Below are positions 39,957-56,740 of a stretch of 64,000 nt of DNA, one piece after another. How positions within the stretch are numbered: the stretch's first letter is position 1; every line of letters starts with the position of its first letter. This stretch comes from Sphingomonadaceae bacterium. GTDB taxonomy: Bacteria; Chloroflexota; UBA6077. Position numbers and translations under genes: made by a program. Location of the stretch: the NCBI GenBank assembly GCA_050261575.1, contig JBLNDL010000043.1, positions 12,115 to 76,114 of the forward strand, written 5' to 3'. Under the pieces are notes generated by a model. That model saw nothing but the letters and a program-made list of their open reading frames with translations. It had not been told where the DNA came from and did no database searches.

Positions 39957-39986
39957 CCTACACTCACTTATGCTCAGGAGGTGCCA

Positions 39987-40874
39987 GTGGGGCCTATCTT
40001 CATCGATCTCGATCCAACGATAGTGCGGCTGGGCCACTTCTCCCTGCGTTGGTACGGCCTCTTCATCGGTCTCGCCATCGCGGCCGCTTTCTTCGTCGCC
40101 CTCAGGGAGGCCAGGCGCAAGGGCGTGGCCGAGGACGACGTCATAGGACTTGGGATGTGGGCGGTCTTGGGCGGCTTCGTGGGGGCGAGGCTGCTGCACG
40201 TCATCGACAGGTGGCCGGAGTATGCGGCCCAGCCGGAGACCATTCTCGCAATCCAGAACGGCGGGCTGGCCATCTACGGAGGCATCCTGGGGGGTGTCTC
40301 GACGGGGGCGCTCTACGCCCGACGGCGCGGACTCCCCATCGCGAGGATGGCAGACCTGGCGGCGCCGGGGCTGATCCTGGCTCAGGCCATCGGCCGGATA
40401 GGCTGCATCATCAACGGCGACGCCGTCGGGGCTCCCACCGACCTCCCCTGGGGGATGGTCTATCTGAACCCCGAGGCCATGGCCCCCAGCCTGGGAGTCG
40501 CCTACCACCCCACCCCTGTCTACGAACTCGTGGGAGACCTGCTGATCTTCGCCCTGCTGTGGGCGCTCAGGAAGCGGCTGAGGGTAGATGGGACGCTCTT
40601 CCTCGTGTACCTGGGGCTCTACTCCAGCCTCAAGTTCGCCGTCACCCTGGCACGCCAGGAGGTGGTATGGTTCGCGGGCCTGCAGGAGGCGCAGTTGGTG
40701 TCGCTCTTGGGCGGCCTTTCAGCCCTGGCATTGCTGATCTACATATCAAGACGGCGACCCGCAGGAGTTGGCGGGGGCGCGTTGGGCACGTCCACGATCA
40801 CCGCGGGAGGCCCCGCTGCTGCCACCGGCAAGAGGAAGGCGCGGAAAGCCAGATCCAGACGTGGAGCTCGCTAA
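39987..40874 (+). CDS. lgt: Prolipoprotein diacylglyceryl transferase
   Basis: GTG start with AGGAGG-N5; the Lgt signature GLAIYGGILGG plus the H/Y/R catalytic set; a Lys/Arg-rich C-terminal tail. Confidence 0.85.
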   Translation: MGPIFIDLDPTIVRLGHFSLRWYGLFIGLAIAAAFFVALREARRKGVAEDDVIGLGMWAVLGGFVGARLLHVIDRWPEYAAQPETILAIQNGGLAIYGGILGGVSTGALYARRRGLPIARMADLAAPGLILAQAIGRIGCIINGDAVGAPTDLPWGMVYLNPEAMAPSLGVAYHPTPVYELVGDLLIFALLWALRKRLRVDGTLFLVYLGLYSSLKFAVTLARQEVVWFAGLQEAQLVSLLGGLSALALLIYISRRRPAGVGGGALGTSTITAGGPAAATGKRKARKARSRRGAR

Positions 40875-40948
40875 GAGCTAGCTGAGAGTGCCGGGACGGC
40901 CCTACAGTCATCGCCGAAGCCCAGACGGGCGGCATCCTCCCGAGCGCC

Positions 40949-41287
40949 CTAATCCTGCTCGAGGTCACGGCGCATCTCCGCGTACTGCTCCCTGGTGATT
41001 TCCCCCCTGGCGTACCGTTCTCGAAGGATGTCCAGCGGGAGGTTAGCCGTGGGGGCCGCTCCTGCGCCCTCCTGCTGGGCCTGTCGGATGAGCCAGATCA
41101 CCAGCACCACGCCTCCGGCCACGATCAGCACCCAGAACAGCATCATGAAGATCCACCACAGCGGGCTGAAGCCCATGCCGCTCCAGCCCATCATACCGGC
41201 GCCCATCATGCCCCCTCCGAGTAGCCCCAGGAGGAGGACGACCAGCGCAACTGCGCCAACTACGATGGCGACGTCTCTCCCTTGCAT
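40949..41287 (-). CDS. SHOCT-domain membrane protein
   Basis: Two TM helices, then LDILRERYARGEITREQYAEMRRDL (a SHOCT motif). Confidence 0.7.
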   Translation of the reverse strand: MQGRDVAIVVGAVALVVLLLGLLGGGMMGAGMMGWSGMGFSPLWWIFMMLFWVLIVAGGVVLVIWLIRQAQQEGAGAAPTANLPLDILRERYARGEITREQYAEMRRDLEQD

Positions 41288-41308
41288 GGGAATCGTTCTC
41301 TTCCTCTG

Positions 41309-42232
41309 TCAGGCTCCCGGTCCCACCGCAGGCGAGGGCGACGGCGTTCCGGGCAGAGGGCCTGCGACCCGCATCATCTCCCCCACGATATCCTGCATCC
41401 GGTCGAGTTGCTGTTTCAGGTCCTGCCTCTGCTCGGGGCTCACCCGGGCGAGGGCCGGCCCCATCAGGTCTATCAGTCGGTTCATGTCGTCGGTCAGGTC
41501 CGCCATGTGGCCCGCCATCAACTCCAGCTCCTGGGGACTCAATTGCTGCATATGGGTGTGGAACTGCCGGTGGGTCTCGCTCATCTGATCGTGCATCCAC
41601 CCCATGTCCCCAGGGCCCATGGGGCCAATCGGCCACGGCGTGCCATCGGGAGACATCGTCGGTCCCGCCCCGGGTGTGGCTTGCGGCCCCATCGGGCCGG
41701 CTCCCGGCGTGCCACGCGGCTCAGGCGTTGCAGCCATCGGGGTAGCCCAGGGCATCATCCGCCGCATCTGTTGGAGGTCGGCGTGCATCTGCTGAACGAT
41801 CTTCTCCGCCTCCTGCCGCTCCTCGGGCGTCATCTGGTCCACAACCGGCTGCATCAAGAGCATGAACCGGCTCATCTCGTCCATCAGGTCGGCCATCAGC
41901 GTGGCCACCTGCTGCCTCCGCTCCGGCCCCATCTGCGGTAGCTGGCTGTGGAGTTGGACCAGGTCGCGGTGGAGGTCTCGCATCTGCTGCTGTATCGACT
42001 GTACGTCGGCAGGAAGGGGGGTCGCCGGAGCGGCGGCTCGCGCCCCAGCCACTGCGGTGGTGGGCGTGGCGGCGCCAGCCTGGACAACCGCTGCTGCCCC
42101 GGCGGCTGGGCTTGGGGTGCCCGCCGGGAGTGTCTGGTCGGCCGGTGCGCATGCCGCCACGATCGCGCCAAGTCCGATCGCGAGCAGAATCACCCCTGCC
42201 TGCTTTCCCCGCATCTCTCCTCGATTACTCAT
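41309..42232 (-). CDS. Met/His/Gln-rich lipoprotein with two LTXXQ-like repeats (CpxP/Spy/ZraP-like periplasmic protein)
   Basis: Lipobox IVAAC; internal duplication (...MTPEERQEAEKIVQQMHADLQQMRRMMP / ...VSPEQRQDLKQQLDRMQDIVGEMMRV); a Met/His cluster MGWMHDQMSETHRQFHTHMQQ. ATG 42232 with GAGGAA-N6. Confidence 0.55.
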   Translation of the reverse strand: MSNRGEMRGKQAGVILLAIGLGAIVAACAPADQTLPAGTPSPAAGAAAVVQAGAATPTTAVAGARAAAPATPLPADVQSIQQQMRDLHRDLVQLHSQLPQMGPERRQQVATLMADLMDEMSRFMLLMQPVVDQMTPEERQEAEKIVQQMHADLQQMRRMMPWATPMAATPEPRGTPGAGPMGPQATPGAGPTMSPDGTPWPIGPMGPGDMGWMHDQMSETHRQFHTHMQQLSPQELELMAGHMADLTDDMNRLIDLMGPALARVSPEQRQDLKQQLDRMQDIVGEMMRVAGPLPGTPSPSPAVGPGA

Positions 42233-42242
42233 CACTCGTTCC

Positions 42243-43427
42243 TCACTTCGCCCCAACCTGAGCGGGCGTCCGGGTGGGCTCGGTCGGCTCCTCGGCCCCC
42301 TTGAAGCCCTCCTCCATGAACTCCGTCTCGGCCTCCTGCAGCGCCTCGCCCATGGCGGTGTGCACCGCCTCCTCGGGGATGGTCCTGGAGAGGAAGCTCT
42401 TCACTATACCCATCGATCGGTCAGTCTTTTCTATCGACTTCATCGCGTCACGCTCGATCCCGGCCATGGCCCGTATTGCGTCCACCGTCTCCGGGATCGT
42501 TATCGCCTCGTTGTGCACCTGGAAGGTGAGGTAGAGTTCCTGGCCGTCGGAGGCGAGGGCATCCTCCCACACCGCCACCTCCCACATGTCGTTGCGTGGA
42601 CGCTTCAGATCCCGCATCAGCTCGATCACCGAGTTGAGGGCCACAAGGCCGTCGGTAGCCCGAACGAAGGCGACGCGGGGCTCCTCCCATAGGGCATGGC
42701 GCAGCTCGTCCACACTCACGGGATGGGTCGTCTCCACCATAGCGAAGTGCATGTGACTCAGGTTGTATGGACCCGCTCCGGCCATGGTCGTGATGTTCAG
42801 CCCCTCGATGACGCTCTGGGCATCGGGCCCCTGGTGGCTTGGCACCTTCGTCTCCGGGATGGCGGTGTTGATCATCCCATTCTTGTGGGACTCCCACGGG
42901 TCGGTCCCGCGCCGCAGCAGCACCGCCCTCGCCCGCTTGATCCAGCCGCGCCGGTTGAGTGCGTTCATGATGCGGCAGAGCGCCGTAGTGTTGCAGGAGA
43001 CCACGCGGACGAACTGCCGGTCGATGGCGCCCACGTAGTTGACCTGGGCCGTGAAGGAGTAACCCGCCAGTTCGTGCTTCTCTCCCCCCTGGAAGATGGC
43101 CTTCACCCCCGCCTGCTCGTAGGCAGCCTTGTTCCTGGCCCCGATCCCCTTGGGGGTGCAGTCCACCACGAGGTCAACCTTCTTCAGCAGTTCGTGCAGT
43201 GGCCCGGTTACCGGGATGCGGGCTTGCTCCATCTCGGCTCGCTTCTCGGGGACCGAGGCGTAGATGGGATAGCCCGACTGCGCGGCCACTCGGATGCGAT
43301 AGTCGTAGGTAACGTCCGATATCCCCACCAACTCCATGTCGTCCTGGAGGACCACGGCGTCGGCGACACGCTTGCCGATGACGCCGTAGCCGTTGACCGC
43401 CACTCGAACCTTTCTGTTCTTAGCCAT
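42243..43427 (-). CDS. Glyceraldehyde-3-phosphate dehydrogenase, type II (archaeal-type), with about 50-aa acidic C-terminal extension
   Basis: MAKNRKVRVAVNGYGVIGKRVADAV, IFQGGEK, VRVVSCNTT (catalytic Cys), PSHQGPD and IPETVDAIRAM closely track archaeal GAPDH blocks. Confidence 0.85.
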   Translation of the reverse strand: MAKNRKVRVAVNGYGVIGKRVADAVVLQDDMELVGISDVTYDYRIRVAAQSGYPIYASVPEKRAEMEQARIPVTGPLHELLKKVDLVVDCTPKGIGARNKAAYEQAGVKAIFQGGEKHELAGYSFTAQVNYVGAIDRQFVRVVSCNTTALCRIMNALNRRGWIKRARAVLLRRGTDPWESHKNGMINTAIPETKVPSHQGPDAQSVIEGLNITTMAGAGPYNLSHMHFAMVETTHPVSVDELRHALWEEPRVAFVRATDGLVALNSVIELMRDLKRPRNDMWEVAVWEDALASDGQELYLTFQVHNEAITIPETVDAIRAMAGIERDAMKSIEKTDRSMGIVKSFLSRTIPEEAVHTAMGEALQEAETEFMEEGFKGAEEPTEPTRTPAQVGAK

Positions 43428-43709
43428 CCGCGGTGTTCCCTCGTCCTTCGATTGTCGTACACAGCGATGGGGGCCGGGCCACTGGAATTGGCCACCCGTC
43501 AGCCGCCCCAGTGATGGCACGTGTCGTACCGTAGAAGAGGTCCATGGCTGCCTCTCGCGCATCTCTCGCCACCTTTTCAGCCCCACCTAAGCGGAGGTTA
43601 AGCTCCCTCCTGTATTGTTAGCGCGGCGAGGGGGCAAGCTCATCCACACCTGGCAGAGCACGGCGCTTGCCGGTTTTCGGCGTCTCACCCGGGATCTCAG
43701 CGTCCCGCG

Positions 43710-43793
43710 ATGGAGTACACCCCGGACAGGCCCGACGAGTACAACTTGAGCTGCCAGATGGGGATACTGCGCGACAAGCTGATCGTGGAGTAG
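43710..43793 (+). CDS. Possible 27-codon small ORF upstream of the methyltransferase gene (MEYTPDRPDEYNLSCQMGILRDKLIVE)
   Basis: ATG...TAG ending 5 nt before the next ATG; no RBS evidence. Speculative. Confidence 0.15.
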   Translation: MEYTPDRPDEYNLSCQMGILRDKLIVE

Positions 43794-43798
43794 GGTCC

Positions 43799-44482
43799 AT
43801 GAGTAAAAGGCTATGGGACTACGGTCTTTGGGAGGTGGCGCTGGCCAACTCGGCGCTCTTCATCGTCTTCGCCTTCAGCTTCACCAGGCCCCGCACCGCC
43901 CGCGACTGGCGCTCCTTCGGGGCCTTCTCCGCCTTCCTGGTGGCGCTCTTCGCCGAGATGTACGGCTTCCCCCTGACGATATACCTGCTCTCCGGATGGC
44001 TCGGAAGCCGCTACCCGAGCATCGACCTGTTCTCTCACGAAAACGGCCACCTCCTGGACACCCTGCTCGGGTGGGGCGGCGATCCGCACTGGACCAGCCT
44101 CCACCTGCTCAGCGATGGGCTCATCGTCCTCGGCTTCCTCATCGTCGCCTTCGCCTGGAGAGTGCTCTACCGAGCCCAGAGGCGTGGGGAGCCGGCCACC
44201 TCCGGACTGTACAGCCGCGTCCGGCACCCCCAGTACGTCGGGTTCATCGTCGTCATGCTGGGCTTCCTCCTCCAGTGGCCGACCATTCCGACGCTGGTGA
44301 TGTTCCCGATCCTCGCTTCGATGTACGTCCGGCTGGCTCGAAGGGAGGAGCGCGAGGCCCTAGAGGCTTTCGGCGAGGAGTACGCACGGTATGCCCGGGC
44401 CACTCCCGCGTTCCTCCCGCGTCTCGGTCGCATAGGGGCAGCAGGACGTGACGAGACCGCCGAAGCCCGGGACCAACCTTGA
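43799..44482 (+). CDS. Isoprenylcysteine carboxyl methyltransferase / PEMT-family membrane methyltransferase
   Basis: ICMT family C-terminal motif GLYSRVRHPQYVGFIVVMLG...E...EE.L...FG..Y..Y; several TM helices. Confidence 0.75.
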   Translation: MSKRLWDYGLWEVALANSALFIVFAFSFTRPRTARDWRSFGAFSAFLVALFAEMYGFPLTIYLLSGWLGSRYPSIDLFSHENGHLLDTLLGWGGDPHWTSLHLLSDGLIVLGFLIVAFAWRVLYRAQRRGEPATSGLYSRVRHPQYVGFIVVMLGFLLQWPTIPTLVMFPILASMYVRLARREEREALEAFGEEYARYARATPAFLPRLGRIGAAGRDETAEARDQP

Positions 44483-47271: not shown

Positions 47272-47415
47272 GGGGAGTCCCTCCAGGGGAAAAGTCTATG
47301 ATGTCGCGCGGGTAAGTCAACAATGCGAGGGGATTCTATCGGGGCGCCTGTTGGGGGCGCAACCCCCTTTTCCTTAGAGTTCGCTGAGAGCCGCCCCGCC
47401 AGCGCCCCAGAGCGC

Positions 47416-47443
47416 TTGACAAGGCGCCGCCAGCGTGAATAAT
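47416..47443 (+). promoter_or_regulatory. Strong sigma-70-like promoter candidate (TTGACA-N16-AATAAT) for the dsrEFH-yeeE-yeeD transcription unit
   Basis: Perfect -35 TTGACA at 47416-47421, then 16 nt, then AATAAT at 47438-47443; about 70 nt upstream of the GTG at 47516. Confidence 0.45.
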
Positions 47444-47515
47444 GACGGCACGAATTGTTGAGTATCTCGCGCGGAAAGCTAGACTTTATCCCGCCGTCTT
47501 CATCCGGAGGTCGCC

Positions 47516-47812
47516 GTGACGCTCGCCATCCTTCTCACAAGCGGCTTCGAATCCGCCGACAAACACACCGCGCTGAGGCTGGCCGAGGCTGCTCTCGCCC
47601 AGGGACATCACGTGAAGCTCTTCCTGATGGGCGACGGCGTCTACAGTGCGTCCATCTTCGGCAACCTCGCCCAAAAGGGGGCTTCCGTCGTGTGGTGCTC
47701 GCACAACGCCCAGCAGCGCGGGCTGCTGCCGGTACAAGGTGTCTCCGCGGGAAGCCAGTTCGAGTGGGCGGAAATGGTGGCCCAGGCGGACAGGGTGGTG
47801 AGCTTTGGATAA
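47516..47812 (+). CDS. DsrE/TusD-like sulfur-relay protein
   Basis: GTG start with GGAGGT; a roughly 98-aa DsrE/DsrF-fold protein with Cys in WCSHNAQQRG. Confidence 0.65.
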   Translation: MTLAILLTSGFESADKHTALRLAEAALAQGHHVKLFLMGDGVYSASIFGNLAQKGASVVWCSHNAQQRGLLPVQGVSAGSQFEWAEMVAQADRVVSFG

Positions 47813-48170
47813 GTTGAGGCAGGGCAAGAATGTCGTCGTGCTGATCCGGCGATCCCCCCTCGGCAGCCTCAAAGCTTCCGAGGGGCTGCGGATGGCCGTG
47901 GGGCAGAGCATGGCCCACCGGGTCACGGTGCTGCTGGTGGACACCGCGGTGTGGCTGGCCGGGCCACTGAAGCCGGAACTGGTGGAGGGGGGAGGGGTCG
48001 GCAAGCACCTGGGCATGCTGACACGTCTGAAGCAGCGGGTGTGGGTGGAGGCATCGTCGATGGAACGGTATGGACTGGAGCCGAGCCTTCTCCGGGAGGG
48101 CGTCTCGATCGTGAGCGGGCAAGAGATCGACGAGGCGCTGCTCGCAGCCGACGCCGTCGTTGTGTACTGA
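47805..48170 (+). CDS. DsrF/TusC-like sulfur-relay protein
   Basis: NVVVLIRRSPLGSLKASEGLRMAV parallels the TusC N-terminus (KIAFVFRSAPYGSASGREALDA); the start (TTG 47805 or 47814) is uncertain. Confidence 0.6.
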   Translation: MDKLRQGKNVVVLIRRSPLGSLKASEGLRMAVGQSMAHRVTVLLVDTAVWLAGPLKPELVEGGGVGKHLGMLTRLKQRVWVEASSMERYGLEPSLLREGVSIVSGQEIDEALLAADAVVVY

Positions 48171-48179
48171 GGTGACGAG

Positions 48180-48437
48180 ATGAGGGCGCTCCACATACTG
48201 CGGTCTATGGAGGACGAGCGCGCGTTGGCGACTGCGCTCTCGCACGCCGCCGATCACCCCACCAGCCTGCTGCTGCTCCAGGATGCGGTGCTGGCCAGGG
48301 TGGACGGTTTCCCGGGCCCCGTCTACGCCTCTGCCGAGGACGTCGCAGCCAGGGGAAAGGGCGGCACCTTTCGGGAGGTCGACTACGAGGCCATCGTGAA
48401 CCTCATCTTCGAGCACGATCGAGTGATCACTTGGTGA
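48180..48437 (+). CDS. DsrH/TusB-like sulfur-relay protein
   Basis: An 85-aa protein with RBS GAGGTG-N5-ATG; a small DsrH-fold pattern (LHILRS...LLLLQDAV). Confidence 0.6.
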   Translation: MRALHILRSMEDERALATALSHAADHPTSLLLLQDAVLARVDGFPGPVYASAEDVAARGKGGTFREVDYEAIVNLIFEHDRVITW

Positions 48438-48476
48438 CGGAGGGGCGATACCCGGCCACGTCCCTCCAGACCATCG

Positions 48477-48501
48477 AGTCGGGGTTGTCCCAACCCCGAC
48501 T
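48477..48501 (+). terminator. 11-bp stem-loop 40 nt after dsrH (terminator or attenuator candidate)
   Basis: agtcggggttg-tcc-caaccccgact; no U-tract. Confidence 0.3.
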
Positions 48502-48550
48502 GGTCGCGCAGTCGACCGCCGCCGTTGGGGCGCAACGCGAGCGAGCACGC

Positions 48551-48584
48551 GAGGCAAGCGAGCACAGCCTCACGGTTGCGGCCG
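48551..48584. repeat. Short dispersed intergenic repeat, copy 2 (gaggcaagcgagcacagcctcacggttgcggccg), with a partial tandem duplication (gcgagcgagcac) immediately upstream
   Basis: See copy 1 at 39923-39956. Confidence 0.35.
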
Positions 48585-48635
48585 ACTCCGCGATGACACA
48601 AACAGACCAACCCAGCAGCAGATGGGAGGTGGCAT

Positions 48636-49922
48636 TTGGCGACGACGACGTTGGCGGATTTCAGCTTACAAACCCCTGCTTTCACTGACCGTTTGCGGTC
48701 GGTGCGAGACAGGGTCTTCGTGGAGTACTGGCCCTACTGGGCAGCGGCAATGGTTCTCGCGGTGCTGAACATCTTCGAGTTCGGTTTCGGTGGCCGTGCC
48801 TGGGGGGTCACCACCGAGTTCACCCGGTGGGGTGGGCACCTGATGCAACTGCTGGGGGTGGACGTCGGCAACTGGCTCTACTTCAAGCAGATCGGACTAG
48901 AGGGTATGCCGTGGGACCGTGGATCCGGATGGATCAACATCGGCATGCTCCTCGGCGCGCTGATCGGGGCGCTTCTCAGCACCAACTTCAAGATCCGGAT
49001 GCCGAGGCGGCGGATCCGCCTGGTGCAGGGGTTCGTGGGGGGTGCCATCGCCGGATTCGGCGCCAGGCTCGCCATGGGATGCAACCTCGGCTCCTTCTTC
49101 AGCGCCATCCCGCAGTTCTCTTTCCACGGCTGGCTCTTCATGGCTGGTCTGTTCCTGGGCACCTACCTGGGGACCAAGATCGTCCTCCTGCCGGTCTTCC
49201 TGGGCAAGCCCGAGCGACATCGAGGTAGAGCGGGCGAGCCGACGCCCGACCCCACCGGGAGGAGCATCCAGCCGATCCTGGGCCTCGTTCTGCTGGGGCT
49301 GGTGGGATCGGGAGTCGCCTACTACGTGCTGTTCGGCAAATGGACGCTCGGGGTTTGGCTGCTGTTCGGGGTCGGGTTCGGCTTCGCCATCGAGCGGGGG
49401 CGGTTCTGCTTCACCTCGGCCTTCCGCGAGCTGTGGATCACCCGCCAGGCGGACCTGTCCAGGGCCCTCGCCCTGGGCATGATGGTCGCCACCATCGGCA
49501 TGGCTATCCTGATCTACGCAGGCAAGGTGCCCGAGGCGCAGTGGGCGAGCCCTGGCGCACTGCTGGGCGGGATAATCTTCGGTACAGGCATCGTCGTGGC
49601 CGGCGGGTGCGAGACCGGGTGGATGTACCGCTCCGCCGAGGGGTACGTGCAGCTCTGGATGGCTGGCCTCGGCACCATCGTGGGGGCCACGCTGCTGGCT
49701 TGGGCGTGGGGATCCGCAGGGCTGTACCACTACCTGGTCGAGGGCTGGCCCAAGATCGCCCTCTTCAAGTGGATCGGCTGGCCGGCCGCGATCCTGGCGA
49801 CCCTGGCCCTGTTGGCGGGCTGGTATCTCTTCGTGACCTGGTGGGAGTCGCGTGGATCCCTCTCCGTTCCCCGGGCTGCTGCCAGGGGCATCGCATCAGA
49901 CAAGGAGAAGGCAACGGCATGA
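48636..49922 (+). CDS. YeeE/YedE family thiosulfate (sulfur-compound) transporter
   Basis: Two homologous halves, each with a conserved Cys in a GxC motif (LAMGCNLGS / VAGGCETG). TTG start after GGGAGGTGG; the start is uncertain. Confidence 0.8.
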   Translation: MATTTLADFSLQTPAFTDRLRSVRDRVFVEYWPYWAAAMVLAVLNIFEFGFGGRAWGVTTEFTRWGGHLMQLLGVDVGNWLYFKQIGLEGMPWDRGSGWINIGMLLGALIGALLSTNFKIRMPRRRIRLVQGFVGGAIAGFGARLAMGCNLGSFFSAIPQFSFHGWLFMAGLFLGTYLGTKIVLLPVFLGKPERHRGRAGEPTPDPTGRSIQPILGLVLLGLVGSGVAYYVLFGKWTLGVWLLFGVGFGFAIERGRFCFTSAFRELWITRQADLSRALALGMMVATIGMAILIYAGKVPEAQWASPGALLGGIIFGTGIVVAGGCETGWMYRSAEGYVQLWMAGLGTIVGATLLAWAWGSAGLYHYLVEGWPKIALFKWIGWPAAILATLALLAGWYLFVTWWESRGSLSVPRAAARGIASDKEKATA

Positions 49923-50167
49923 GCGAGACCGAGAGGATCGTCGTCGATAGGGTCCTAGACCTGCGGGGGGAAACCTGCCCCTACCCGCCCATCTACACTG
50001 TACAGGAGTTGGCCGACATGAATCCTGGGGAGGTGCTGGAGGTAATAGTGGACCACCCGCCGTCGGTCACCAACGTCCCCAAGGAGGTGGCCCGGCATGG
50101 CCACGCGGTGCTTGGGGAGCCCGTACGGCAGGGCGCGGTGTACCGGATGCGCTTCCAGGTGCGGTAG
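49919..50167 (+). CDS. TusA-like protein (YeeD-type partner of YeeE)
   Basis: ATG overlaps the yeeE stop (ATGA); LDLRGETCPYPPIYTVQELADMNPGEVLEVIVDHP. The ORF track lists 49920, but counting in the printed sequence places the ATG at 49919-49921. Confidence 0.75.
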   Translation: MSETERIVVDRVLDLRGETCPYPPIYTVQELADMNPGEVLEVIVDHPPSVTNVPKEVARHGHAVLGEPVRQGAVYRMRFQVR

Positions 50168-50232: not shown

Positions 50233-50964
50233 ATGACGCCCCCAGGTAAGGGTGAACGGATGGGTATGATGAACGCAAAGATCCTGGTGATCGACGACGA
50301 CGCCAACGTCACCAGCCTCCTGAAGAGGGGCCTCTCCTACGAGGGCTACAGGGTGCTCACCGCCGCCTCCGGGAAGGAGGGGTTGGACCTGGCTCGAGAG
50401 CAGCCTCCCGACCTGGTGGTGCTGGACGTGATGATGCCCGGCATAGACGGCCTGGAGGTGTGCCGCCGGCTGCGCGCGGCGGACGCGGCTCGTCCCATCA
50501 TCCTGCTGACGGCGAGGGATGGCACAGCCGACCAGGTGCAGGGGCTGGAGACGGGGGCCGACGACTACGTGGTCAAGCCCTTCACCTTCGAGGTGCTGCT
50601 GGCCCGCATCAAGGCGTGCCTTCGTCGATCCGAGGCGAGCGGGGCAGAGCAGCTTCGTTTCGCCGACCTGGTGCTGGACACCGGAACCCACACCGCCCGG
50701 CGGGGCCGCAGAGAGATCGACCTGACCACCACCGAATACGAGCTGCTGCTCCAGTTCATGCGGCACCCGCGCCAGTTGCTCGCGAAGGACCAGTTGATGG
50801 ACAGGGTGTGGGGTTACAGCTTCGAGGGGAACTACAACATCCTCGAGGTGTACGTCCGCTACCTCCGCAGCAAGCTGGAGGCCGAGGGGGAGCCTCGGCT
50901 GATCCACACGGTGCGGGGGGCAGGGTACCTCCTGAGAGAGCCGCGGGAGGGCGAGGAGGAGTAG
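50233..50964 (+). CDS. OmpR-family response regulator
   Basis: REC (KILVIDDD...LVVLDVMMPGIDG) plus a winged-helix trans_reg_C domain (LTTTEYELLLQFMRHP...RYLRSKLE). The start is probably ATG 50260-50269. Confidence 0.85.
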   Translation: MTPPGKGERMGMMNAKILVIDDDANVTSLLKRGLSYEGYRVLTAASGKEGLDLAREQPPDLVVLDVMMPGIDGLEVCRRLRAADAARPIILLTARDGTADQVQGLETGADDYVVKPFTFEVLLARIKACLRRSEASGAEQLRFADLVLDTGTHTARRGRREIDLTTTEYELLLQFMRHPRQLLAKDQLMDRVWGYSFEGNYNILEVYVRYLRSKLEAEGEPRLIHTVRGAGYLLREPREGEEE

Positions 50965-50967
50965 AGA

Positions 50968-52449
50968 GTGTACTCGTCCCTCCGGCTGAGGCTTGCGGTG
51001 TGGTACGCGACACTGCTGGCCCTCATCCTGGCGACCACCGCCTTCCTCTCCTACAGCTTCCACAGCAGCTACCATTACCAGGAGGTCGATCGCTCTCTGG
51101 TCGGCACAGCGGTTCACGTCCGCGGCGAGCTGCCGGTAGGGGATGGCCGGTATCGACTCCAAGATGGGATCGATCTCTCGCGAGTGGACGAGTTCGCCTC
51201 CCCAGACGTCTACGTGCGCCTCTACGACGCTGACGGCGGGTTGATCGCGGCCTCCCCCAACTCTGGGCATCAACCACAGGCGGATCCCCGACTGGTATCC
51301 GAAGCGCCTCCAGATCGCGCGGGCGGTGGCCCACTTGGGTCGCTGCTTCATCTCTTGATCAACCTTGGACAGGCGGACCTGCCGGAGGATGGTGGATTCC
51401 TGACCGTGGTGCAGGAAGGGCGGGGCAGGACCAGGCTGTACGCGGTTCCCATCAGGGCCGGCGACCGGCTGCTGGGGTACCTGGAGGCAGGGTCGTCCAT
51501 GGATCGGCTCGACCGCTCCATAGAGAGGCTCGGCCTGCTACTCGCTTCAAGCTCCGCCCTGGGACTCCTGGCAGCGCTGCTGGGGGGGTGGGCCATCGCA
51601 GCCGGCGCGCTGCGCCCGGTGGCAACGATGGCCAGCACGGCTCGGGCCATCGCGCTCTCCAGGGGCTTCTCTCGCAGGCTGCCCCATCCCCGCAGAGACG
51701 ACGAGCTGGGCCAGTTGTCCGTAACCTTCAACGAGATGCTGGCGAGCCTCGACGAAGCCTATCGGGCGCAGCAGCGTTTCGTCGCCGACGCATCGCACGA
51801 GCTGCGGGCGCCCCTCACAGCGATCCAGGGCAACCTGGAGCTGCTGGAGCGGGCGCCTCAGATGAGCGAGGTGGAGAGGGCCGAGACCCTGTCCTCCCTT
51901 CGCCGGGAAGCCGGACGGATGGGCCGTCTGGTGGCCGACCTGCTGGTGCTGGCGCGCGCCGACGCCGGCCAGCCCTTGAGGCGGGAGCGGGTGGAGCTGG
52001 ATCGGCTGCTCCTGGCGGTGTTCCAGGAGACGCGGGTGCTGGCCGGAGGGCGGAAGCTGTCGATACGCGACCTGGATCAGTTGCTCGTGCTGGGGGATCC
52101 GGACCGGTTGAAGCAGTTGCTGCTGATCCTGGTGGATAACGCCATCAAGTACACGCCCGAGGGGGGCGAGATCCAGCTTGCCCTCCGAAGGGAGCCCGGC
52201 GCGGCAGTCGTCTCCGTGTCCGACACCGGGATCGGCATCTCAACCGAGGACCTCCCTCACATCTTCGAGCGCTTCTACCGAGCGGACAAGGCTCGGTCCA
52301 GGGATCTGGGCGGCACCGGTCTGGGGCTGTCCATCGCCAGGTGGATAGCCGAAAGCCACGGAGGCCACATCTCCGTGGAAAGCGAGGCCGGCCGGGGCAG
52401 CGTCTTCACCGTCCGGCTGCCCCGAGCGCACTCCTCTCAGGGGCTCTAA
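50968..52449 (+). CDS. Sensor histidine kinase (two TM helices, periplasmic domain, HAMP, HisKA, HATPase_c)
   Basis: GTG start 4 nt after the regulator stop; H-box ADASHELRAPLTAI, and N/G boxes. Confidence 0.85.
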   Translation: MYSSLRLRLAVWYATLLALILATTAFLSYSFHSSYHYQEVDRSLVGTAVHVRGELPVGDGRYRLQDGIDLSRVDEFASPDVYVRLYDADGGLIAASPNSGHQPQADPRLVSEAPPDRAGGGPLGSLLHLLINLGQADLPEDGGFLTVVQEGRGRTRLYAVPIRAGDRLLGYLEAGSSMDRLDRSIERLGLLLASSSALGLLAALLGGWAIAAGALRPVATMASTARAIALSRGFSRRLPHPRRDDELGQLSVTFNEMLASLDEAYRAQQRFVADASHELRAPLTAIQGNLELLERAPQMSEVERAETLSSLRREAGRMGRLVADLLVLARADAGQPLRRERVELDRLLLAVFQETRVLAGGRKLSIRDLDQLLVLGDPDRLKQLLLILVDNAIKYTPEGGEIQLALRREPGAAVVSVSDTGIGISTEDLPHIFERFYRADKARSRDLGGTGLGLSIARWIAESHGGHISVESEAGRGSVFTVRLPRAHSSQGL

Positions 52450-52560: not shown

Positions 52561-53358
52561 TCAGGAGGTGCACGTGGACGGCCTTTCACGGATCGTTCGC
52601 ACCATCACCGCTATGCCCGCCAGGTTCGAGGCGACGCCAACCAGCATCAGAGGCTGCCGGTACTCGGAGAGCAGGAGGGCCGCGCCGGAGAGCCCCACGA
52701 AGGGCAGCACATCGGCCACGTGGTGGGCACAGCAGGCCAGCATCGCCACGCTGGAGGTGCCCGTGCTGGCCCCGGCCACGGCGGCGGCGGAGCCGGTGCC
52801 CTTCTTCTTGTGAAGGGCCCTCCGCATGTAGAAGAACAGGTCCAACTGAACGCCGAACCCCAGGGCAATCGCGAGGACGAAGTACCAGTCCTGCGACAGC
52901 AGCTCCGCCGCGTGCTCGAACCCCTGGGCGAGGGTGACAAGACCCAGGTACAGGGCCACCAGGAGCGCGGATCCGGCCGCCCCGTACATGGCGGGGCGCC
53001 CGAGGAAGTCCCGCAGGCCCAGCCCTGTCGGCGACCGCTCCTGCTGCTCCGCTGCCGGCGCACCCGGCGCTGGCTCGGGCTCGCCCGGGTGGTAACCAGC
53101 GGCTGCCACGGCGTCCTGCAGTAATCCAGCAGTGACCCGGGCTGGATCGATGCGGAGTACCGCCATCCCCGGGACCAACTCCACCCGGGCGTCAACGACG
53201 CCCGGAACGCTCTCGAGGGCTGCGCGGGTACGGCGGACGCGCGCCTGGCAGGTCAAGCCACGGACAGGCATCACCAACTCGACCGGTTCGTCGGAGCCGT
53301 TCGTTGGAGCCGTCGACGAGCCCTCGCGCGTTTCGGCGGCCATCACGACACCTCCCAC
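52561..53358 (-). CDS. Membrane protein with N-terminal degenerate HMA (heavy-metal-associated) domain and MerT-like Cys-Cys transmembrane region
   Basis: VELVMPVRGLTCQARVRRTRAALESVPGV... has the HMA fold pattern with only one Cys of the CxxC pair; C-terminal TM helices include SVAMLACCAHHVADVLPFVGLSGAALLL (resembling the MerT CC...GLSGA motif). Confidence 0.5.
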   Translation of the reverse strand: MGGVVMAAETREGSSTAPTNGSDEPVELVMPVRGLTCQARVRRTRAALESVPGVVDARVELVPGMAVLRIDPARVTAGLLQDAVAAAGYHPGEPEPAPGAPAAEQQERSPTGLGLRDFLGRPAMYGAAGSALLVALYLGLVTLAQGFEHAAELLSQDWYFVLAIALGFGVQLDLFFYMRRALHKKKGTGSAAAVAGASTGTSSVAMLACCAHHVADVLPFVGLSGAALLLSEYRQPLMLVGVASNLAGIAVMVRTIRERPSTCTS

Positions 53359-53867
53359 CTGAACACTCGCTCTTTCACCCCGGCCACGTCACGGATGACC
53401 AGCTCCAGCACCCGCACGCCAGAGGCCAGGATCGCCTTCCCAGAGGTGTCCTTCGCCGGGAAGCTCAGCGTCCCCGATCGATGGTGCCCTCCAGATGGTG
53501 CATCCCACCGTTCGGGCTTCAGTTCCTGCCCTCGATCGTTTCGCAGCACCGCCAGCTTGCCGAGATCGTACCCGTCCAGGTTGACCGAATGGGTGTCCAT
53601 GGCCACGGAGAATGCGAGCGGACGGTCGGTGTCCCCGGGGTTCTGCCAGGTCACCTTGATGGTCACACTCCCACCCTCGCTGGTGCGAGTAGTGCCCCTG
53701 GCAGCGGCGGCTCCGCTACTGCTCTGGGCCTGAGGCCGTGAGAGCTCCGCCGCCACGACGCTGGCGGAGGGAGCCTTTGCCTCCGTGGAACTGCATCCGA
53801 GCAGGACAACCGCGGACACACCCAGCGCCAGTCCAATGCCGATTAGTCTCCAACGTCGTCGTTGCAA
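53343..53867 (-). CDS. Lipoprotein of unknown function
   Basis: TTG start with GGGGAGG-N7; signal peptide plus lipobox (LALGVSAVVLLGCSS); a beta-rich mature domain with a HHRSG motif. The ORF-track N-terminal extension is rejected. Confidence 0.55.
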   Translation of the reverse strand: MQRRRWRLIGIGLALGVSAVVLLGCSSTEAKAPSASVVAAELSRPQAQSSSGAAAARGTTRTSEGGSVTIKVTWQNPGDTDRPLAFSVAMDTHSVNLDGYDLGKLAVLRNDRGQELKPERWDAPSGGHHRSGTLSFPAKDTSGKAILASGVRVLELVIRDVAGVKERVFRWEVS

Positions 53868-54018
53868 CCTGATACCTCCCCGGGGCGGCCCGCCGGACTC
53901 GATACGGGCGGCGGGCTGCACGTTGGTCTCGTCCTCCGCATAAGATACTCCCCGGGGATGAACGGACCCTGAAAGGGGGCTTAACGGGGGCTGAGAGATG
54001 GCGTCAGGCGGAGCTTCC

Positions 54019-54603
54019 TTAGGGTGTGTCGGAGGCAATAGGGGGTGTATCGGTGGGCTTCCCGCGGCCCTCGTACCTGGCATCGCTGGGGGCAGACAGT
54101 CGCAGCCAGGCCAGGCGGGAGTACAGGCCGGCCATCAGCCCCAGCGGACAGAGGTACCGACACCAGGCTCGCCCCCGCCAGAGCAGAGAGGAGACGAGGG
54201 CTCCGGAGGCTAATGCGAGGAGGAGGAGCGCCGTGAAGGGGCCGCTGCTCTCCAGGGAGAGAAGGAGAAACAGGAAGCCCATGATGGCCAGGCCGAGAGC
54301 GGCAATCCAGGGGCCGACCGCCCTCAGCCGCGCAGGGGGCAGCGGCAACGCGGGTCGCCGGAGCCGCTGCGCCAAGTCGCCCAGGGCGGAGAAGGGGCAC
54401 ACCGCGCACCAGAGGCGGGCGGTCAGCAGGATGAAGAAGGGGAGGAGCGTCCACCAGAGTTGCCATACCAGCGCCGCTCCGAGATTCATCTCGCTGCGCT
54501 GGGGCGGACGCAGGGCAAGAACGACCACTGCCGTAGCGGCCGCCAGCAGCGTCGCCTGCGGGATGAGCGGGAACCACGGCCAGCGGAGCAGCCTGCTAAC
54601 CAC
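54019..54603 (-). CDS. NapH/MauN/NosR-like four-TM membrane protein with two CXnCP motifs and no ferredoxin domain
   Basis: WCAVCPFSALGDL and WCRYLCPLGLMAGL follow TM2 and TM4 (compare NapH/NosR CGWLCPxG). GTG start at 54603 overlaps the upstream stop by 8 nt (GTGGTTAG); the 38-codon N-terminal extension has 84% GC3 and encodes TM1. The ORF-track ATG at 54684 is rejected (GC3 59%, and it overlaps the upstream gene). Confidence 0.6.
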   Translation of the reverse strand: MVSRLLRWPWFPLIPQATLLAAATAVVVLALRPPQRSEMNLGAALVWQLWWTLLPFFILLTARLWCAVCPFSALGDLAQRLRRPALPLPPARLRAVGPWIAALGLAIMGFLFLLLSLESSGPFTALLLLALASGALVSSLLWRGRAWCRYLCPLGLMAGLYSRLAWLRLSAPSDARYEGRGKPTDTPPIASDTP

Positions 54604-55015
54604 CGAAGAACGCACGGTAGTAGAGCTTCTGCACGGGTTTGACCGGGGAGTCCGTCTCCACCGTGATCTCGAACAGGTGAGCACCTCCCATCCCCTCGTG
54701 CATGCTGGGCGCCAGCATCAGGTAGCTGTTCTCGCCAGGTTGCAGTGTCGTAGCACCTACGACCGGGGTGGGCGGTCAACAACCTTCCACGGTCTTCACG
54801 CCGGGGGTGGCGACGATCTTAACGGGCCTATCTCCCACGTTGCGCATCTCGAATCGGGCTGGCGCCAGCCTGCCCAGGGGGACCCGCCCCAGGTCGACGC
54901 TCTCGGGGGAGAAGACCAACTCCCCCTCCCTGCTGCCCCCCAGACCCCCGGACAGCCCCAGGAGGGCCACAGCCGCCATTCCGAGAGCCAGCGCCACAAG
55001 GGTGGCTCGTCTCAT
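54596..55015 (-). CDS. DUF1573-like secreted protein with in-frame TGA (candidate selenocysteine, motif G-C-U) followed by a hairpin
   Basis: ATG 55015 (RBS GAGAGGTG-N5), signal peptide MRRATLVALALGMAAVALLGLSGG, then a DUF1573-like core (LVFSPESVDLGRVPLGRLAPARFEMRNVGDRPVKIVATPGVKTVEGC). A TGA at 54776-54778 sits exactly where DUF1573 proteins carry the conserved CGC(T) cysteine motif. The same frame continues for 59 more codons at 78% GC3 (PPTPVVGATTLQPGENSYLMLAPSMHEGMGGAHLFEITVETDSPVKPVQKLYYRAFFGG*) and resembles the DUF1573 C-terminus. A 7-bp hairpin (gucguag-GUG-cuacgac, + coordinates 54747-54763) starts 12 nt after the UGA with G/U in the apical loop, consistent with a bacterial SECIS. 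If the TGA were a stop, the annotated product would be only the 54779-55015 part. Confidence 0.5.
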
Positions 55016-55516
55016 CCCTGCACCTCTCACAGTCCACCCATCCGGAATCACAAACCCATCGTCCTATAGACAAGATAATAGTTCTGCATGCCGGGGCTGG
55101 CAGGTTTCTCTCAGGAACTTCTAAGTTGGCGCAGATTAACCTGGATTAGTCAGGATCACGCAGGGACCGTGCCGTGGGTTCGCCATCTCTAATCGGGCTC
55201 TCAGCAGTGGCTCATGTAGCCTTAATACTCGGCTGCTATTGTCGCGGGGGATAGCGTCTGCTACGTTCCTGCAGAGGGCAACCGCCAAACCACGGCACTG
55301 GCGAATCGCCGAGGGACACAGAACGGAGATGGAGAAGCGAGGTTGGGCACAGAGAACGCAGAACTCCGAAGTGAGGAGCCGCTCCAACAACGAGCCGCCG
55401 AGGCTTCCCTGCCAGTAGGCCGCCTCCTCGATTCCCATGAGGCGGTGTCGACACCCCCTCCGCGGTACCGGAACGGTATTGGCGGCAGGCCCGCACGGCG
55501 CCGGGGGAGCAGGGTG

Positions 55517-56005
55517 ATGCGTGTGCTGCCGCTCGTCTTCGCCGCGGTGCTCGTGTGGGTCGTTGGGAGCGGGCTGTGGTACGCGGCGAACGGATCGAGC
55601 GGGCCTGTCCTTCAGTCCTTCGGCAGCTATCGGCTGACTCAGGCGACCACGGGCCAGGAGGCTGTGGCGCAGATGTCCAGGCTGCACGGCAAGGGAGTGG
55701 GCGTCACCGGCGGCTACGTGGGCCACTATGAGGGGCCTTCCGGGGGTGCCATGGCGTATGTCGGCGAGACCGCCGGTGAGGGGGACGCCAGGACGCTGCT
55801 CGCGCAAATGGAGCGGCTCATAGCGGCAGGAAACCCGTACTTCACCGACCTGAAGCCGCTCACCATCGATGGGGTCCGGGTGCTATCCGTGAGGAGTGGC
55901 CAGGAGGCTCACTACTTCTGGCAGGCGGGAAACAAGGTAGTTTGGATCGGGTTCGACCAGGAGGACCCCGCCGGGATATCTGCTGCGGTGCAGGCGTTCA
56001 GATAG
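55517..56005 (+). CDS. Hypothetical membrane-anchored protein (162 aa)
   Basis: ATG with GGGGGAG-N7; N-terminal signal-anchor (MRVLPLVFAAVLVWVVGSGLW); no family recognised. Confidence 0.5.
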   Translation: MRVLPLVFAAVLVWVVGSGLWYAANGSSGPVLQSFGSYRLTQATTGQEAVAQMSRLHGKGVGVTGGYVGHYEGPSGGAMAYVGETAGEGDARTLLAQMERLIAAGNPYFTDLKPLTIDGVRVLSVRSGQEAHYFWQAGNKVVWIGFDQEDPAGISAAVQAFR

Positions 56006-56021
56006 GTAAGGGGGTGCATCG

Positions 56022-56498
56022 ATGTCGATGGATAGGGCCGCCGTCGCCGACCCGGGAACGGTACGAAGGGCGGCGTCGGATGCCCGCAGAAGGGGCAAAC
56101 GTATCCGGTTCGCCATCGCGGGTCTGATCCTAGTGGCTGCTCTCGGGTACATGATCTACTCGGGCATCGCCAGCAATTCCGAGTACTACCTCACGGTATC
56201 GGAGGTGTACACCCTGGGGGCCCAGGCCCAGGAGAGCCAGATCAAGATCGGGGGGACGGTGGTGGAAGGGAGCGTGGTCTGGGAGCGGGCAACGAACGCC
56301 GTCAGCTTCGACATCACGGACGAGAAGGGCAAGAGATTGCCGGTCATCTACGCGGGGGTGGTGCCCGACTCCTTCCAGCCGGGGGCCGAGGTGATCCTGG
56401 AGGGTAAGCTACAACAGGACGGCAGATTCGCCGCCACCACGCTTCTGGCCAAGTGCGCCTCCAAGTACGAGCCGCAGATCCCAGGGATGGGCGGGTAG
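56022..56498 (+). CDS. ccmE: Cytochrome c-type biogenesis protein CcmE, Cys-variant (CXXXY instead of HXXXY)
   Basis: Membrane anchor plus OB-fold (VSFDITDEKGKRLPVIYAGVVPDSFQPGAEVILEGK) and a C-terminal LLAKCASKYEP where canonical CcmE has LAKHDENYTP. Confidence 0.8.
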   Translation: MSMDRAAVADPGTVRRAASDARRRGKRIRFAIAGLILVAALGYMIYSGIASNSEYYLTVSEVYTLGAQAQESQIKIGGTVVEGSVVWERATNAVSFDITDEKGKRLPVIYAGVVPDSFQPGAEVILEGKLQQDGRFAATTLLAKCASKYEPQIPGMGG

Positions 56499-56740
56499 CA
56501 CATCGCCACAGGTCTGGCGTGTACTCGAGCGTAGGGCAGGGACGAGCCCCTGCCCCCCCAACTCTAAGCTCGCCTCAAGACTCCCTTCAGCCCCCTCTAA
56601 GCTCGTGCATGTACCCTTGGAATCCACCGTGGGGCAGTGCGGCTATCGCGACTCTGAGATCTGCCGCCCCCTACCTGCGTCATGCGTTCACGCGTCACGC
56701 TCCACGTGGGTCCTGCTTACCGAAACCAGATCATGGAGGG

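Follow-up and report, generated by a model that had tools for sequence, protein, structure and literature searches.

A DsrEFH–YedE–YedF operon paired with a divergent CysK–ThiS::ThiF–TusA operon: a candidate protein-bound sulfur route in a probable Chloroflexota genome

We analyzed a stretch of 64,000 nucleotides (the window; contig JBLNDL010000043.1 of assembly GCA_050261575.1, positions 12,115 to 76,114), in which an operon for three small DsrE-, DsrF- and DsrH-like proteins, a YedE-type membrane protein and a YedF-like protein is transcribed away from a second operon encoding a CysK-type cysteine synthase, a ThiS::ThiF fusion and another protein of the TusA family. The gene identities, the catalytic cysteines, the synteny and the regulatory DNA shared by the two operons are direct observations. 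We see about an even chance that both operons form one co-regulated unit. Its proteins would carry a chalcogen (sulfur most likely) from the membrane to the synthesis of amino acids, keeping it protein-bound on the way. Judged from its sequence, what is new in this region is the joining of a cluster resembling the published YTD clusters, with their DsrEFH of type II, to a ThiS–E1–TusA–cysteine-synthase operon. The eight genes of the unit are the following (window positions throughout):

47516..47812, plus strand: dsrE-like gene, 98 aa; Pfam DsrE 46.9 bits (cut-off 22.7)
47805..48170, plus strand: dsrF/tusC-like gene, 121 aa without cysteine; Pfam DsrE 35.3 bits
48180..48437, plus strand: dsrH/tusB-like gene, 85 aa without cysteine; Pfam DsrH 29.8 bits (cut-off 24.4)
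48636..49922, plus strand: yedE, a two-half Sulf_transp membrane protein of the YedE/FdhT type, 428 aa; Sulf_transp 186.5 bits
49919..50167, plus strand: yedF-like gene of the TusA family with a CPYP motif, 82 aa; Pfam TusA 70 bits
46354..47271, minus strand: CysK-type cysteine synthase (PALP family), 305 aa
45208..46302, minus strand: ThiS::ThiF fusion, 364 aa; Pfam ThiS 47.7 bits, ThiF 286 bits
44949..45194, minus strand: second TusA-family gene, CPYT motif, 81 aa; Pfam TusA 70.4 bits; last gene of the cysK operon

The five plus-strand genes are tightly packed within 47416-50167, in a window with a G+C content of 64-70%. A first-pass annotation had placed three small DsrEFH-fold genes, a two-half transporter and a CPxP TusA-like gene here, all of which Pfam confirmed at these positions, and the divergent PALP–ThiS::ThiF–TusA operon that it described is indeed present on the minus strand. 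On metagenome contigs that contain an identical stretch, public gene callers arrive at these five genes as well. The overlaps of 8 nt between dsrE and dsrF and of 4 nt between yedE and yedF fit a single dsrE-dsrF-dsrH-yedE-yedF operon. The gap of about 200 nt between dsrH and yedE (48438-48635) showed no coding signal, and an 85-aa open reading frame (ORF) that some pipelines call within it gave no family hit. Relatives have between 28 and 198 nt at this place, which makes a conserved element improbable.

The DsrE-like protein has a single cysteine of the catalytic type, Cys61, in the motif WCSHNAQQRG, which aligns with Cys78 of A. vinosum DsrE (VVCVAAAQRRG) and of E. coli TusD (NICVAAALRRG). 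The residue is invariant in 16 close homologs. It is also kept in 151 of 152 aligned sequences of the family (the best 150 family representatives together with the window and A. migulanus proteins), the sole exception being a gap. The first-pass annotation had proposed to check this active-site cysteine and named its lack as a refutation of the route; it is conserved in DsrE, and the DsrF-like and DsrH-like proteins contain no conserved cysteine. A profile search of 1.84 billion cluster representatives returned 697 relatives of DsrE at E <= 1e-3 and 160 at E <= 1e-10. Since the best 150 of them are nearly all 95-120 aa long (median 106 aa) and keep the cysteine, we assign the window protein by sequence to a "short DsrE" family of its own, whose members lack about 30 residues relative to TusD/DsrE. 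Named members of this family often belong to Nitrospirota; others come from Aneurinibacillus and Rossellomorea, whose DsrE, DsrF and DsrH counterparts are 35-41% identical to those of the window (41% between the window DsrF and its A. migulanus neighbor).

The AlphaFold2 model of DsrE reached a predicted local distance difference test (pLDDT) score of 96.8, and its best fold matches were 2HY5_A and 2D1P_A with template modeling (TM) scores of 0.89-0.90; the model of DsrF, computed from the single sequence, was unusable (pLDDT 43.7). The closest solved relative of the window DsrH is E. coli TusB (2D1P_C). All three proteins failed the equivalog models of the Tus system: DsrE scored 32 on TusD TIGR03012 (cut-off 89.25), DsrF 28 bits on TusC TIGR03010 (cut-off 94.15), to which it aligns full-length, and DsrH 43.7 on TusB TIGR03011 (cut-off 49.2). 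The set thus resembles E. coli TusBCD and the type I DsrEFH of A. vinosum (2D1P, 2HY5) in having three paralogous subunits in the order E/D, F/C, H/B, in the DsrE fold and in a catalytic cysteine at the Cys78 position. It differs from them, however, in keeping only the cysteine of the E/D subunit, in the length of DsrE (98 aa against 128-130 aa) and in that no gene for a TusE/DsrC acceptor lies nearby. The window DsrH has no counterpart of Cys20 of A. vinosum DsrH.

The membrane protein and its partner had initially been labeled a YeeE/YeeD thiosulfate importer, a name that probably picks the wrong paralogue. The transporter passed the NCBIfam model NF033796, "selenium metabolism membrane protein YedE/FdhT", with 421 bits (cut-off 350) and failed the TsuA/YeeE models NF041049 (75.8; cut-off 645) and NF052577 (117.5; cut-off 400). 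When compared with the E. coli K-12 proteins of RefSeq, it aligned full-length with YedE (43% identity over 396 residues, E = 5e-96) and with TsuA over 177 residues only (33% identity). The yedF product shows 43% identity with E. coli YedF and 32% with YeeD, and fell just short of the YedF model NF008242 (76.8; cut-off 79). By these similarities the pair is YedE/YedF and not YeeE/YeeD (TsuA/TsuB). The likeness to TsuA–TsuB (PMC11073785; PDB 6LEO, 8J4C) extends to the Sulf_transp superfamily, three cysteine motifs of the essential type and a TusA-like cytoplasmic partner, whereas the window transporter belongs to another subfamily and its partner is nearer to YedF than to YeeD. Cys149, Cys258 and Cys325 of the window transporter are invariant in 10 relatives. 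In the S. thermophila YeeE structure they correspond to the three motifs that bear a cysteine, although the order of the two halves is swapped.

With E. coli YedE–YedF and C. jejuni FdhT–FdhU the relationship is at the level of orthologues, and the E. coli pair has the same 4-nt gene overlap; E. coli and most relatives, however, have no dsrEFH beside the pair. The pair is widespread across phyla, yedE being followed by a yedF-like or TusA-like gene in 80 out of 80 related genomes (from Bacillota to Proteobacteria). In Aneurinibacillus and Rossellomorea, YedE and the YedF-like protein are 57-62% and 70-75% identical to their window counterparts, respectively. "EcYedE3", reported in PMC10812762 to import no polysulfide, was considered as evidence on YedE and set aside: it is actually the 39-kDa thiosulfate transporter YeeE, and that report is therefore uninformative on the YedE family. 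At two Pasteurellaceae loci (L090, 5884-9491, and L095), moeA and moeB stand directly upstream of yedE-yedF, with a MoeB that scores 401.8 bits on its equivalog model (cut-off 376.55). This gene order suggests a link between YedE/YedF and the sulfur supply of MoaD/MoeB, and gives a second instance of YedE/YedF beside an E1 protein.

The pyridoxal phosphate (PLP) enzyme that heads the minus-strand operon had been read as cysM. Its sequence is CysK-like instead: it passed the CysK model TIGR01139 (429.8; cut-off 350.95) and failed the cysM model TIGR01138 (297; cut-off 394). Among the best 60 solved relatives listed for it, which are synthases of the CysK type (M. tuberculosis CysK1, 2Q3B, is one) and PLP enzymes related to them, there is no CysM entry. 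The next gene encodes a ubiquitin-like (Ubl) domain ending in a conserved AMAGG, a linker of 2 aa and a MoeB/ThiF-type E1 domain with two CxxC motifs. The Gly-Gly of the ThiS part is invariant in five lineages and the CxxC motifs of ThiF are conserved. In Pfam the E1 portion consists of ThiF only, with no Rhodanese hit, and it passed the MoeB subfamily model PRK05690 with 309.6 bits (cut-off 266). No stand-alone thiS was found elsewhere in the window.

The second TusA, which closes this operon, is highly conserved across six lineages, and both TusA-family proteins carry the cysteine of the CPx motif (CPYP and CPYT). Two ideas about the second TusA were discarded. Its C-terminal Gly-Gly, considered as a Ubl-like end, is unconserved, with endings KGG, KAG, KK, KG and KQ; and orthology to the second TusA of the Bacillota clusters was ruled out by an identity of 35-38%, the window protein being nearer to the YedF type (47%).

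We compared the window with public assemblies and contigs carrying DsrE homologs of 64-80% identity (L numbers here and below stand for loci, not whole genomes). The arrangement [tusA<-thiS::thiF<-PALP]<>[dsrE dsrF dsrH yedE yedF] is kept in five lineages, represented by the window, L009/L010, L005, L011/L012 and L013/L014, with flanking genes that differ from one lineage to the next. Because the eight genes stay together while their flanks differ, the comparison supports reading the divergent operons as a single functional unit. In L011 and L013, the gene after yedF encodes a PLP enzyme of the transsulfuration type. In L006-L008 the cysK operon has shrunk to a PALP fragment of 75 aa and a truncated tusA; at L006 (5008-5606) this 75-aa ORF and a 63-aa truncated TusA adjoin an intact dsrEFH-yedEF, and the PALP remnant marks a secondary loss of the cysK operon. 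The L006 dsrEFH-yedEF is followed by an arsenic-resistance cluster (ArsR, Acr3-type SBF, LMWPc, an ArsP permease and a thioredoxin-like protein). L015/L016 retain dsrEFH only. In Aneurinibacillus migulanus (L019) and two Rossellomorea species (L022, L074) the genes stand in the classical YTD order, yedE-tusA-dsrE-dsrF-dsrH, with another tusA after them.

A second architecture was found in a sister lineage, L105 (JGI metagenome 3300041080, 2494-12154), whose DsrE is 48% identical to that of the window. Its genes run in one direction in the order cysK-like, thrC-like, thiS, thiF, two rhodaneses, dsrE-F-H, cysK-like, second dsrEFH and tusA. The cysK-like products are 58% and 47% identical to the CysK-like enzyme of the window, the ThiS ends in GGRR, and the adjacent, separate ThiS and ThiF are colinear with the window fusion. 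L105 holds the DsrEFH–ThiS–ThiF–CysK set without any YedE. Taken together, the window lineage and L105 tie the short DsrEFH type to ThiS, ThiF and cysteine-synthase genes in two architectures, as far as gene order can tell. L105 further carries DsrMK-like, GcvH/LbpA-like and lipoate-attachment genes, and may thereby unite the synthesis of amino acids from a thiocarboxylate with accessory genes of an sHdr-like kind. In a Ca. Manganitrophaceae MAG (metagenome-assembled genome; L104, 8001-8957; GCA_016200325.1), a solitary short dsrE-dsrF-dsrH is convergent with a complete isc operon (IscR, IscS, IscU, IscA, HscB, HscA, Fdx, IscX), and no yedE or tusA was found near it.

Several of these features would also fit housekeeping functions, with DsrEFH acting as TusBCD in tRNA thiolation and a TusA-fed ThiS::ThiF acting as MoaD–MoeB for the molybdenum cofactor or as ThiS–ThiF for thiamin. 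The E1 domain lies above the MoeB cut-off, moeA-moeB precedes yedEF in Pasteurellaceae, the short dsrEFH adjoins the isc operon in a Nitrospirota genome, and the window DsrH is nearest to E. coli TusB. Yet moaA/C/E, thiG/H/C, tusE and mnmA are absent from the vicinity, the constant partner is a cysteine synthase, and none of the TusB, TusC and TusD equivalog models was passed. We consider this explanation very improbable.

Both operons start from one intergenic region, in which conserved DNA elements lie in front of each operon and between the two promoters. The elements, together with the nearest candidate regulator, are listed below.

47416..47443, plus strand: sigma-70-type promoter TTGACA-N16-AATAAT of the dsrE operon, 11 of 12 consensus positions
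47451..47492, plus strand: 42-nt promoter-like element, right copy (ATTGTTGAGT-N16-TAGACT), between the dsrE promoter and the start codon
47286..47327, minus strand: 42-nt promoter-like element, left copy (ATTGTTGACT-N16-TAGACT), before the cysK-like gene
47373..47389, plus strand: direct-repeat box CTTAGAG-N4-CTGAGAG, 11-bp period, pho-box-like, between both divergent promoters
55109-55125, minus strand: further copy of the direct-repeat box
40871-40887, plus strand: further copy of the direct-repeat box
50233-50964, plus strand: OmpR-type response regulator (Pfam), directly 3' of yedF
50968-52449, plus strand: HAMP/HisKA sensor kinase (Pfam)

The dsrE promoter had been recognized in the first pass, and its hexamers turned out to be conserved in five related lineages; the region contains 2 promoter-like sites against 0.5 expected. 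The 42-nt element (consensus ATTGTyGAsT-N16-TAGACT) occurs as two inverted copies (I1), each just 5' of the first gene of an operon, with a sigma-70-like promoter upstream of the copy. An alignment of eleven copies, drawn from six lineages, needs no gaps and shows a fixed spacing. RNAalifold predicted no pairs on these 11 copies, and we therefore read the element as a DNA element, which might serve as an operator or as a further promoter recognized by a different sigma factor. The intergenic region and the leaders were also searched for riboswitches and other known RNAs; across 40-56 kb, Rfam ranked by E-value gave a chance snoRNA hit only.

The direct-repeat box at 47373-47389 is invariant in five lineages (alignment A3) and stands 25-26 nt from the TTGACA hexamer in five lineages and 15 nt from it in L013, spacings about one helical turn apart. 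Its general form, CTnAGAR-N4-CTGAGA, has three sites in the window against 0.04 expected and is confined to the loci of this lineage among the 103 loci compared. Two of the three are located between divergent promoters, whereas the remaining one, where two genes converge, may be due to chance. The distribution of the box points to a small regulon joining the sulfur unit with a Fer4_5/PCYCGC/selenoprotein operon. We take the 7+4+7 architecture of the repeat to be that of OmpR/PhoB-family binding sites, and the OmpR-type regulator encoded downstream of yedF is a candidate for binding it. The two-component proteins align full-length with the heavy-metal models TIGR01387 and TIGR01386, with scores under the cut-offs, and the pair occupies the same position in L001, L009 and L010.

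This setting is also what would be expected of a copper or thiophilic-metal regulon that moves or sequesters reactive sulfur on carriers for sulfane-sulfur and metal-stress homeostasis, with cysteine synthesis merely as a sink. A parallel exists in S. aureus CstA, a rhodanese–TusA–DsrE protein that handles reactive sulfur. Copper or metal genes surround the unit in most lineages: the window has cupredoxin, HMA and Met/His-rich genes, L005 has cupredoxins and a YHS/HMA protein as well as a P-type ATPase (E1-E2_ATPase family), L013 encodes Csp, DUF305 and a repressor of the CsoR type, and in L015 an HMA gene occurs with a response regulator fused to the dsrEFH operon. Moreover, the two-component system following yedF resembles heavy-metal sensors, and the direct-repeat box is common to the Fer4_5/PCYCGC membrane-protein operon. 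Against this stand the sub-threshold scores of the two-component system, the lack of a persulfide dioxygenase, sulfide:quinone oxidoreductase (SQR) or sulfite exporter gene nearby, and the presence of ThiS/ThiF with two kinds of sulfur-amino-acid PLP enzymes, which is more specific than detoxification requires. We regard stress homeostasis as an improbable primary role, second among the alternatives, and it overlaps with a sulfur route to amino acids more than it excludes one.

A protein-bound route from the membrane to cysteine is best supported: the synteny, the shared regulatory DNA, the L105 cluster and the conserved catalytic residues count in its favor, as do the precedents described by Iyer et al. 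(PMC1779556). There, E1 proteins without a rhodanese domain always occurred with SirA/TusA in sulfur-assimilation operons, and in Pelobacter a Ubl–ThiF fusion lies beside cysteine synthase and O-acetylhomoserine sulfhydrylase. The window agrees with this pattern, having a ThiF without Rhodanese and tusA as the next gene. In addition, transfer from TusA to DsrEFH of type II has been seen in vitro (PMC13293266).

In such a route, the YedE channel would hand a reduced or sulfane sulfur species to the cysteine of its partner YedF, from which the persulfide would pass to Cys61 of DsrE within a TusBCD-like DsrEFH complex and on to the second TusA. TusA would stand in for the rhodanese domain of MoeZ-type enzymes and turn the ThiF-adenylated Gly-Gly of ThiS into a thiocarboxylate by sulfuration, once the fusion has set ThiS free. 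The CysK-type enzyme would finally take the thiocarboxylate sulfur to form cysteine. We infer every transfer step, the direction of flow, the cleavage of the fusion and the substrate from the genes and their arrangement.

Known thiocarboxylate pathways (CysO–MoeZ–CysM–Mec+ of M. tuberculosis, HcyS–HcyF–HcyD–MetY of Wolinella and Iyer classes 4c-4e, PMC1779556) share with the window a Gly-Gly carrier of the ThiS/MoaD type, an E1 and a cysteine synthase within one operon. They differ in that the window carrier is fused to its E1, that a JAB/JAMM peptidase is missing and that the synthase is of the CysK type; conversely, the DsrEFH relay and the YedE/YedF channel are found in none of the described classes. 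What the first-pass annotation named CysO is a ThiS domain whose Gly-Gly is internal to a fusion, and no JAMM/Mec+ partner was found in the window or the related loci. The functional coupling and the relay logic of its assimilatory route stand, while the transporter and synthase subfamilies had to be replaced.

A number of observations speak against a route of this kind. The ThiS Gly-Gly is followed after 2 residues by the E1 domain, so the carrier end would be free only once the fusion is cleaved; according to Iyer et al., Ubl domains fused to ThiF may serve a different role (PMC1779556). We found no Pfam JAB hit for a JAMM/Mec+ peptidase in the window ORFs scanned and none in the related loci, nor an HxH…SxxD motif in any plausible window ORF. 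The Mycobacterium CysO and Wolinella HcyS pathways require a JAMM-type peptidase. CysK-type enzymes normally use free sulfide, and the synthase is not of the Mycobacterium CysM type. As to the membrane step, the literature contains no demonstrated transport substrate for the YedE/FdhT subfamily, sulfur included, thiosulfate is a guess and one candidate among others, and the only genetics on the subfamily, on C. jejuni FdhTU, points to selenium (PMC4178425). Finally, L006-8 and the clusters of Aneurinibacillus and Rossellomorea have the dsrEFH–yedEF module but no cysK operon beside it, and L015 and L104 have dsrEFH alone, from which it follows that the coupling to the cysK operon is lineage-specific.

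As the unit sits among copper and metal genes beside a two-component system, what sets it off in the cell may be stress from metals or thiols and not simply a shortage of sulfur. The protein-bound route can be extended accordingly to an assimilatory relay in which sulfur entering through YedE/YedF is never free sulfide, passes from YedF through DsrE, TusA and ThiS::ThiF to CysK, and is switched by a metal-responsive two-component system acting on the pho-box-like repeat. This full version is tentative and, in our estimate, rather doubtful. If true, it would allow cysteine synthesis to continue when copper would precipitate or poison free sulfide, and it would give YedE/YedF a first biochemical role and the debated YTD clusters an alternative meaning.

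According to a 2026 paper (PMC13293266), cable bacteria and sulfur disproportionators encode in their YTD cluster a DsrEFH termed type II, with the active cysteine Cys67. Transfer from TusA through DsrEFH to DsrC was seen in vitro, and the cable-bacterial proteins were not persulfidated by thiosulfate (PMC13293266). The window operon has the same five components, including a single-cysteine short DsrE (Cys67 in YTD, Cys61 here) and two small partners without cysteine, and its sequence makes it a likely member of DsrEFH type II/YTD. While the two small partners are often missed by annotation in YTD clusters, all three window proteins pass the Pfam DsrE/DsrH thresholds. The window differs in its order, rearranged to dsrEFH-yedE-yedF, in having no dsr, apr or qmo genes nearby, in its probable Chloroflexota host, and in being paired and apparently co-regulated with cysK–thiS::thiF–tusA. 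An assimilatory use of Dsr-type relay proteins, which the first-pass annotation had found noteworthy, would be less unprecedented than assumed: the YTD set is published (PMC13293266), and operons combining E1, SirA/TusA and cysteine synthase were described in 2006 (PMC1779556).

The likeness to YTD raises the question of a dissimilatory role, in which sulfane sulfur would go from TusA through DsrEFH to DsrC for oxidation or disproportionation by DsrAB. The gene set is the same (yedE-like, tusA, dsrE and two small partners; PMC13293266), the short DsrE family is rich in Nitrospirota, as published for type II subtype 1, and L105 has DsrMK-like and LbpA-like genes. Type II DsrEFH co-occurs with dsrAB and dsrC in 74% of the reported cases (PMC13293266). 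However, dsrAB, dsrC, dsrMK, apr, sat, sox and hdr are all missing from the 64-kb window and from L001-L016, and the closest clusters outside the lineage belong to Aneurinibacillus and Rossellomorea. Both genera are aerobic heterotrophs. Of all the alternatives, we give this one the least credence. The role of YTD clusters is currently argued between sulfur disproportionation and sulfur oxidation by reverse Dsr; the wiring to a cysteine operon through position and shared control DNA adds a third hypothesis, testable in vitro with six small soluble proteins.

The main rival to sulfur as the cargo is selenium. YedE/YedF would then import selenium species, and YedF, DsrEFH and TusA would carry perselenide for selenophosphate and selenoprotein synthesis or for detoxification, possibly with the CysK-like enzyme making free selenocysteine. 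Whether sulfur or selenium is carried can be addressed directly in this region, where a candidate selenoprotein gene lies behind the same direct-repeat box:

54596-55015, minus strand: candidate selenoprotein gene with an in-frame TGA at 54778-54776 (context VEGC-U-PPTPVVG) and a hairpin at 54763-54747

The predicted product is a DUF1573-like/Ig-like lipoprotein (Pfam DUF1573, 18 bits, sub-threshold), and gene callers break its gene into ORFs of 79/91 aa and 40 aa. The stem-loop starts 12 nt after the TGA. L009/10 and L013/14 retain the TGA together with the hairpin and the reading frame behind it, which suggests that the organism uses selenocysteine (Sec). The TGA and the frame after it are conserved in eight metagenome homologs as well (37-74% identity), where the stem is altered and still pairs, and no cysteine variant was seen among the homologs compared. 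Since the energy of the SECIS-like hairpin was undistinctive in this GC-rich sequence (z-score -0.09), the case for a selenoprotein rests on the conserved TGA and frame. No tRNA-Sec was found in the window.

The candidate gene, 4.6 kb away in a genome that appears to decode UGA as Sec, favors selenium as cargo, as does its position directly 3' of tusA in L013. The window YedE passes the NF033796 selenium-metabolism model and its partner comes close to the YedF cut-off; in C. jejuni, the activity of a formate dehydrogenase that contains selenocysteine is under the control of FdhT/FdhU (PMC4178425), and E. coli yedEF co-expression groups with genes proposed for molybdenum and selenium usage (PMC7888660). 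Comparative genomics has tied domains resembling YedE, SirA and DsrE to selenium (Lin et al., PMC5322559), and 5 of 80 other genomes have selD no more than 8 kb from yedE. The YedE that Lin et al. linked to selenium is TIGR04112, though, a model on which the window YedE reaches only 24 bits (cut-off 200), and the "selenium metabolism" name given to YedE/FdhT is flagged here as a likely error. Furthermore, the 64-kb window contains no selD, selA or selB, a SelD profile found no selD in L104, L105, L019, L022, L074 or L106-L113, and the Pfam gene lists of L001-L016, where the profile scan was not applied, show no selD-type family. The conserved partners are instead sulfur enzymes (ThiS, ThiF, CysK, the transsulfuration-type enzyme and the L105 rhodaneses), L105 keeps its DsrEFH–ThiS–ThiF–CysK set without any YedE, and where the selenoprotein has distant homologs, dsrEFH, yedE and cysK are all missing from the vicinity. 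On balance we think selenium handling unlikely, and favor sulfur as the cargo of the unit.

A DsrE protein identical to that of the window is filed in NCBI under a Sphingomonadaceae MAG. The close relatives of DsrE and YedE, at 80-91% identity, come without exception from Chloroflexota MAGs, and the nearest YedE proteins in named genomes belong to Chloroflexota and Bacillota. Because of these relatives, the filing suggests a binning or labeling error, and the host is probably a member of Chloroflexota. A narrow peptide-pattern scan for DsrE in species-representative genomes found no relative, so this lineage appears to be known only from MAGs and metagenomes.

Genes of a metal-homeostasis neighborhood lie on both sides of the unit (39424-44482 and 52561-59186 of the window):

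39424-39822: cupredoxin
41309-42256: Met/His/Pro-rich secreted protein
52561-53358: HMA-domain membrane protein, second cysteine of the CxxC motif missing
56022-56498: CcmE-like protein
56741-56992: DUF2933 protein
57111-59186: second OmpR/histidine kinase (HK) pair

The same neighborhood includes Lgt and a SHOCT protein. On the minus strand at 42243-43586 lies a type II (archaeal-type) glyceraldehyde-3-phosphate dehydrogenase gene (NF003251, 482.6 bits; cut-off 185), whose longest ORF has an N-terminal extension of about 58 residues. Farther away, at 25588-27087 on the minus strand, the window encodes a fusion of a lipoate-ligase-like and a radical-SAM protein.

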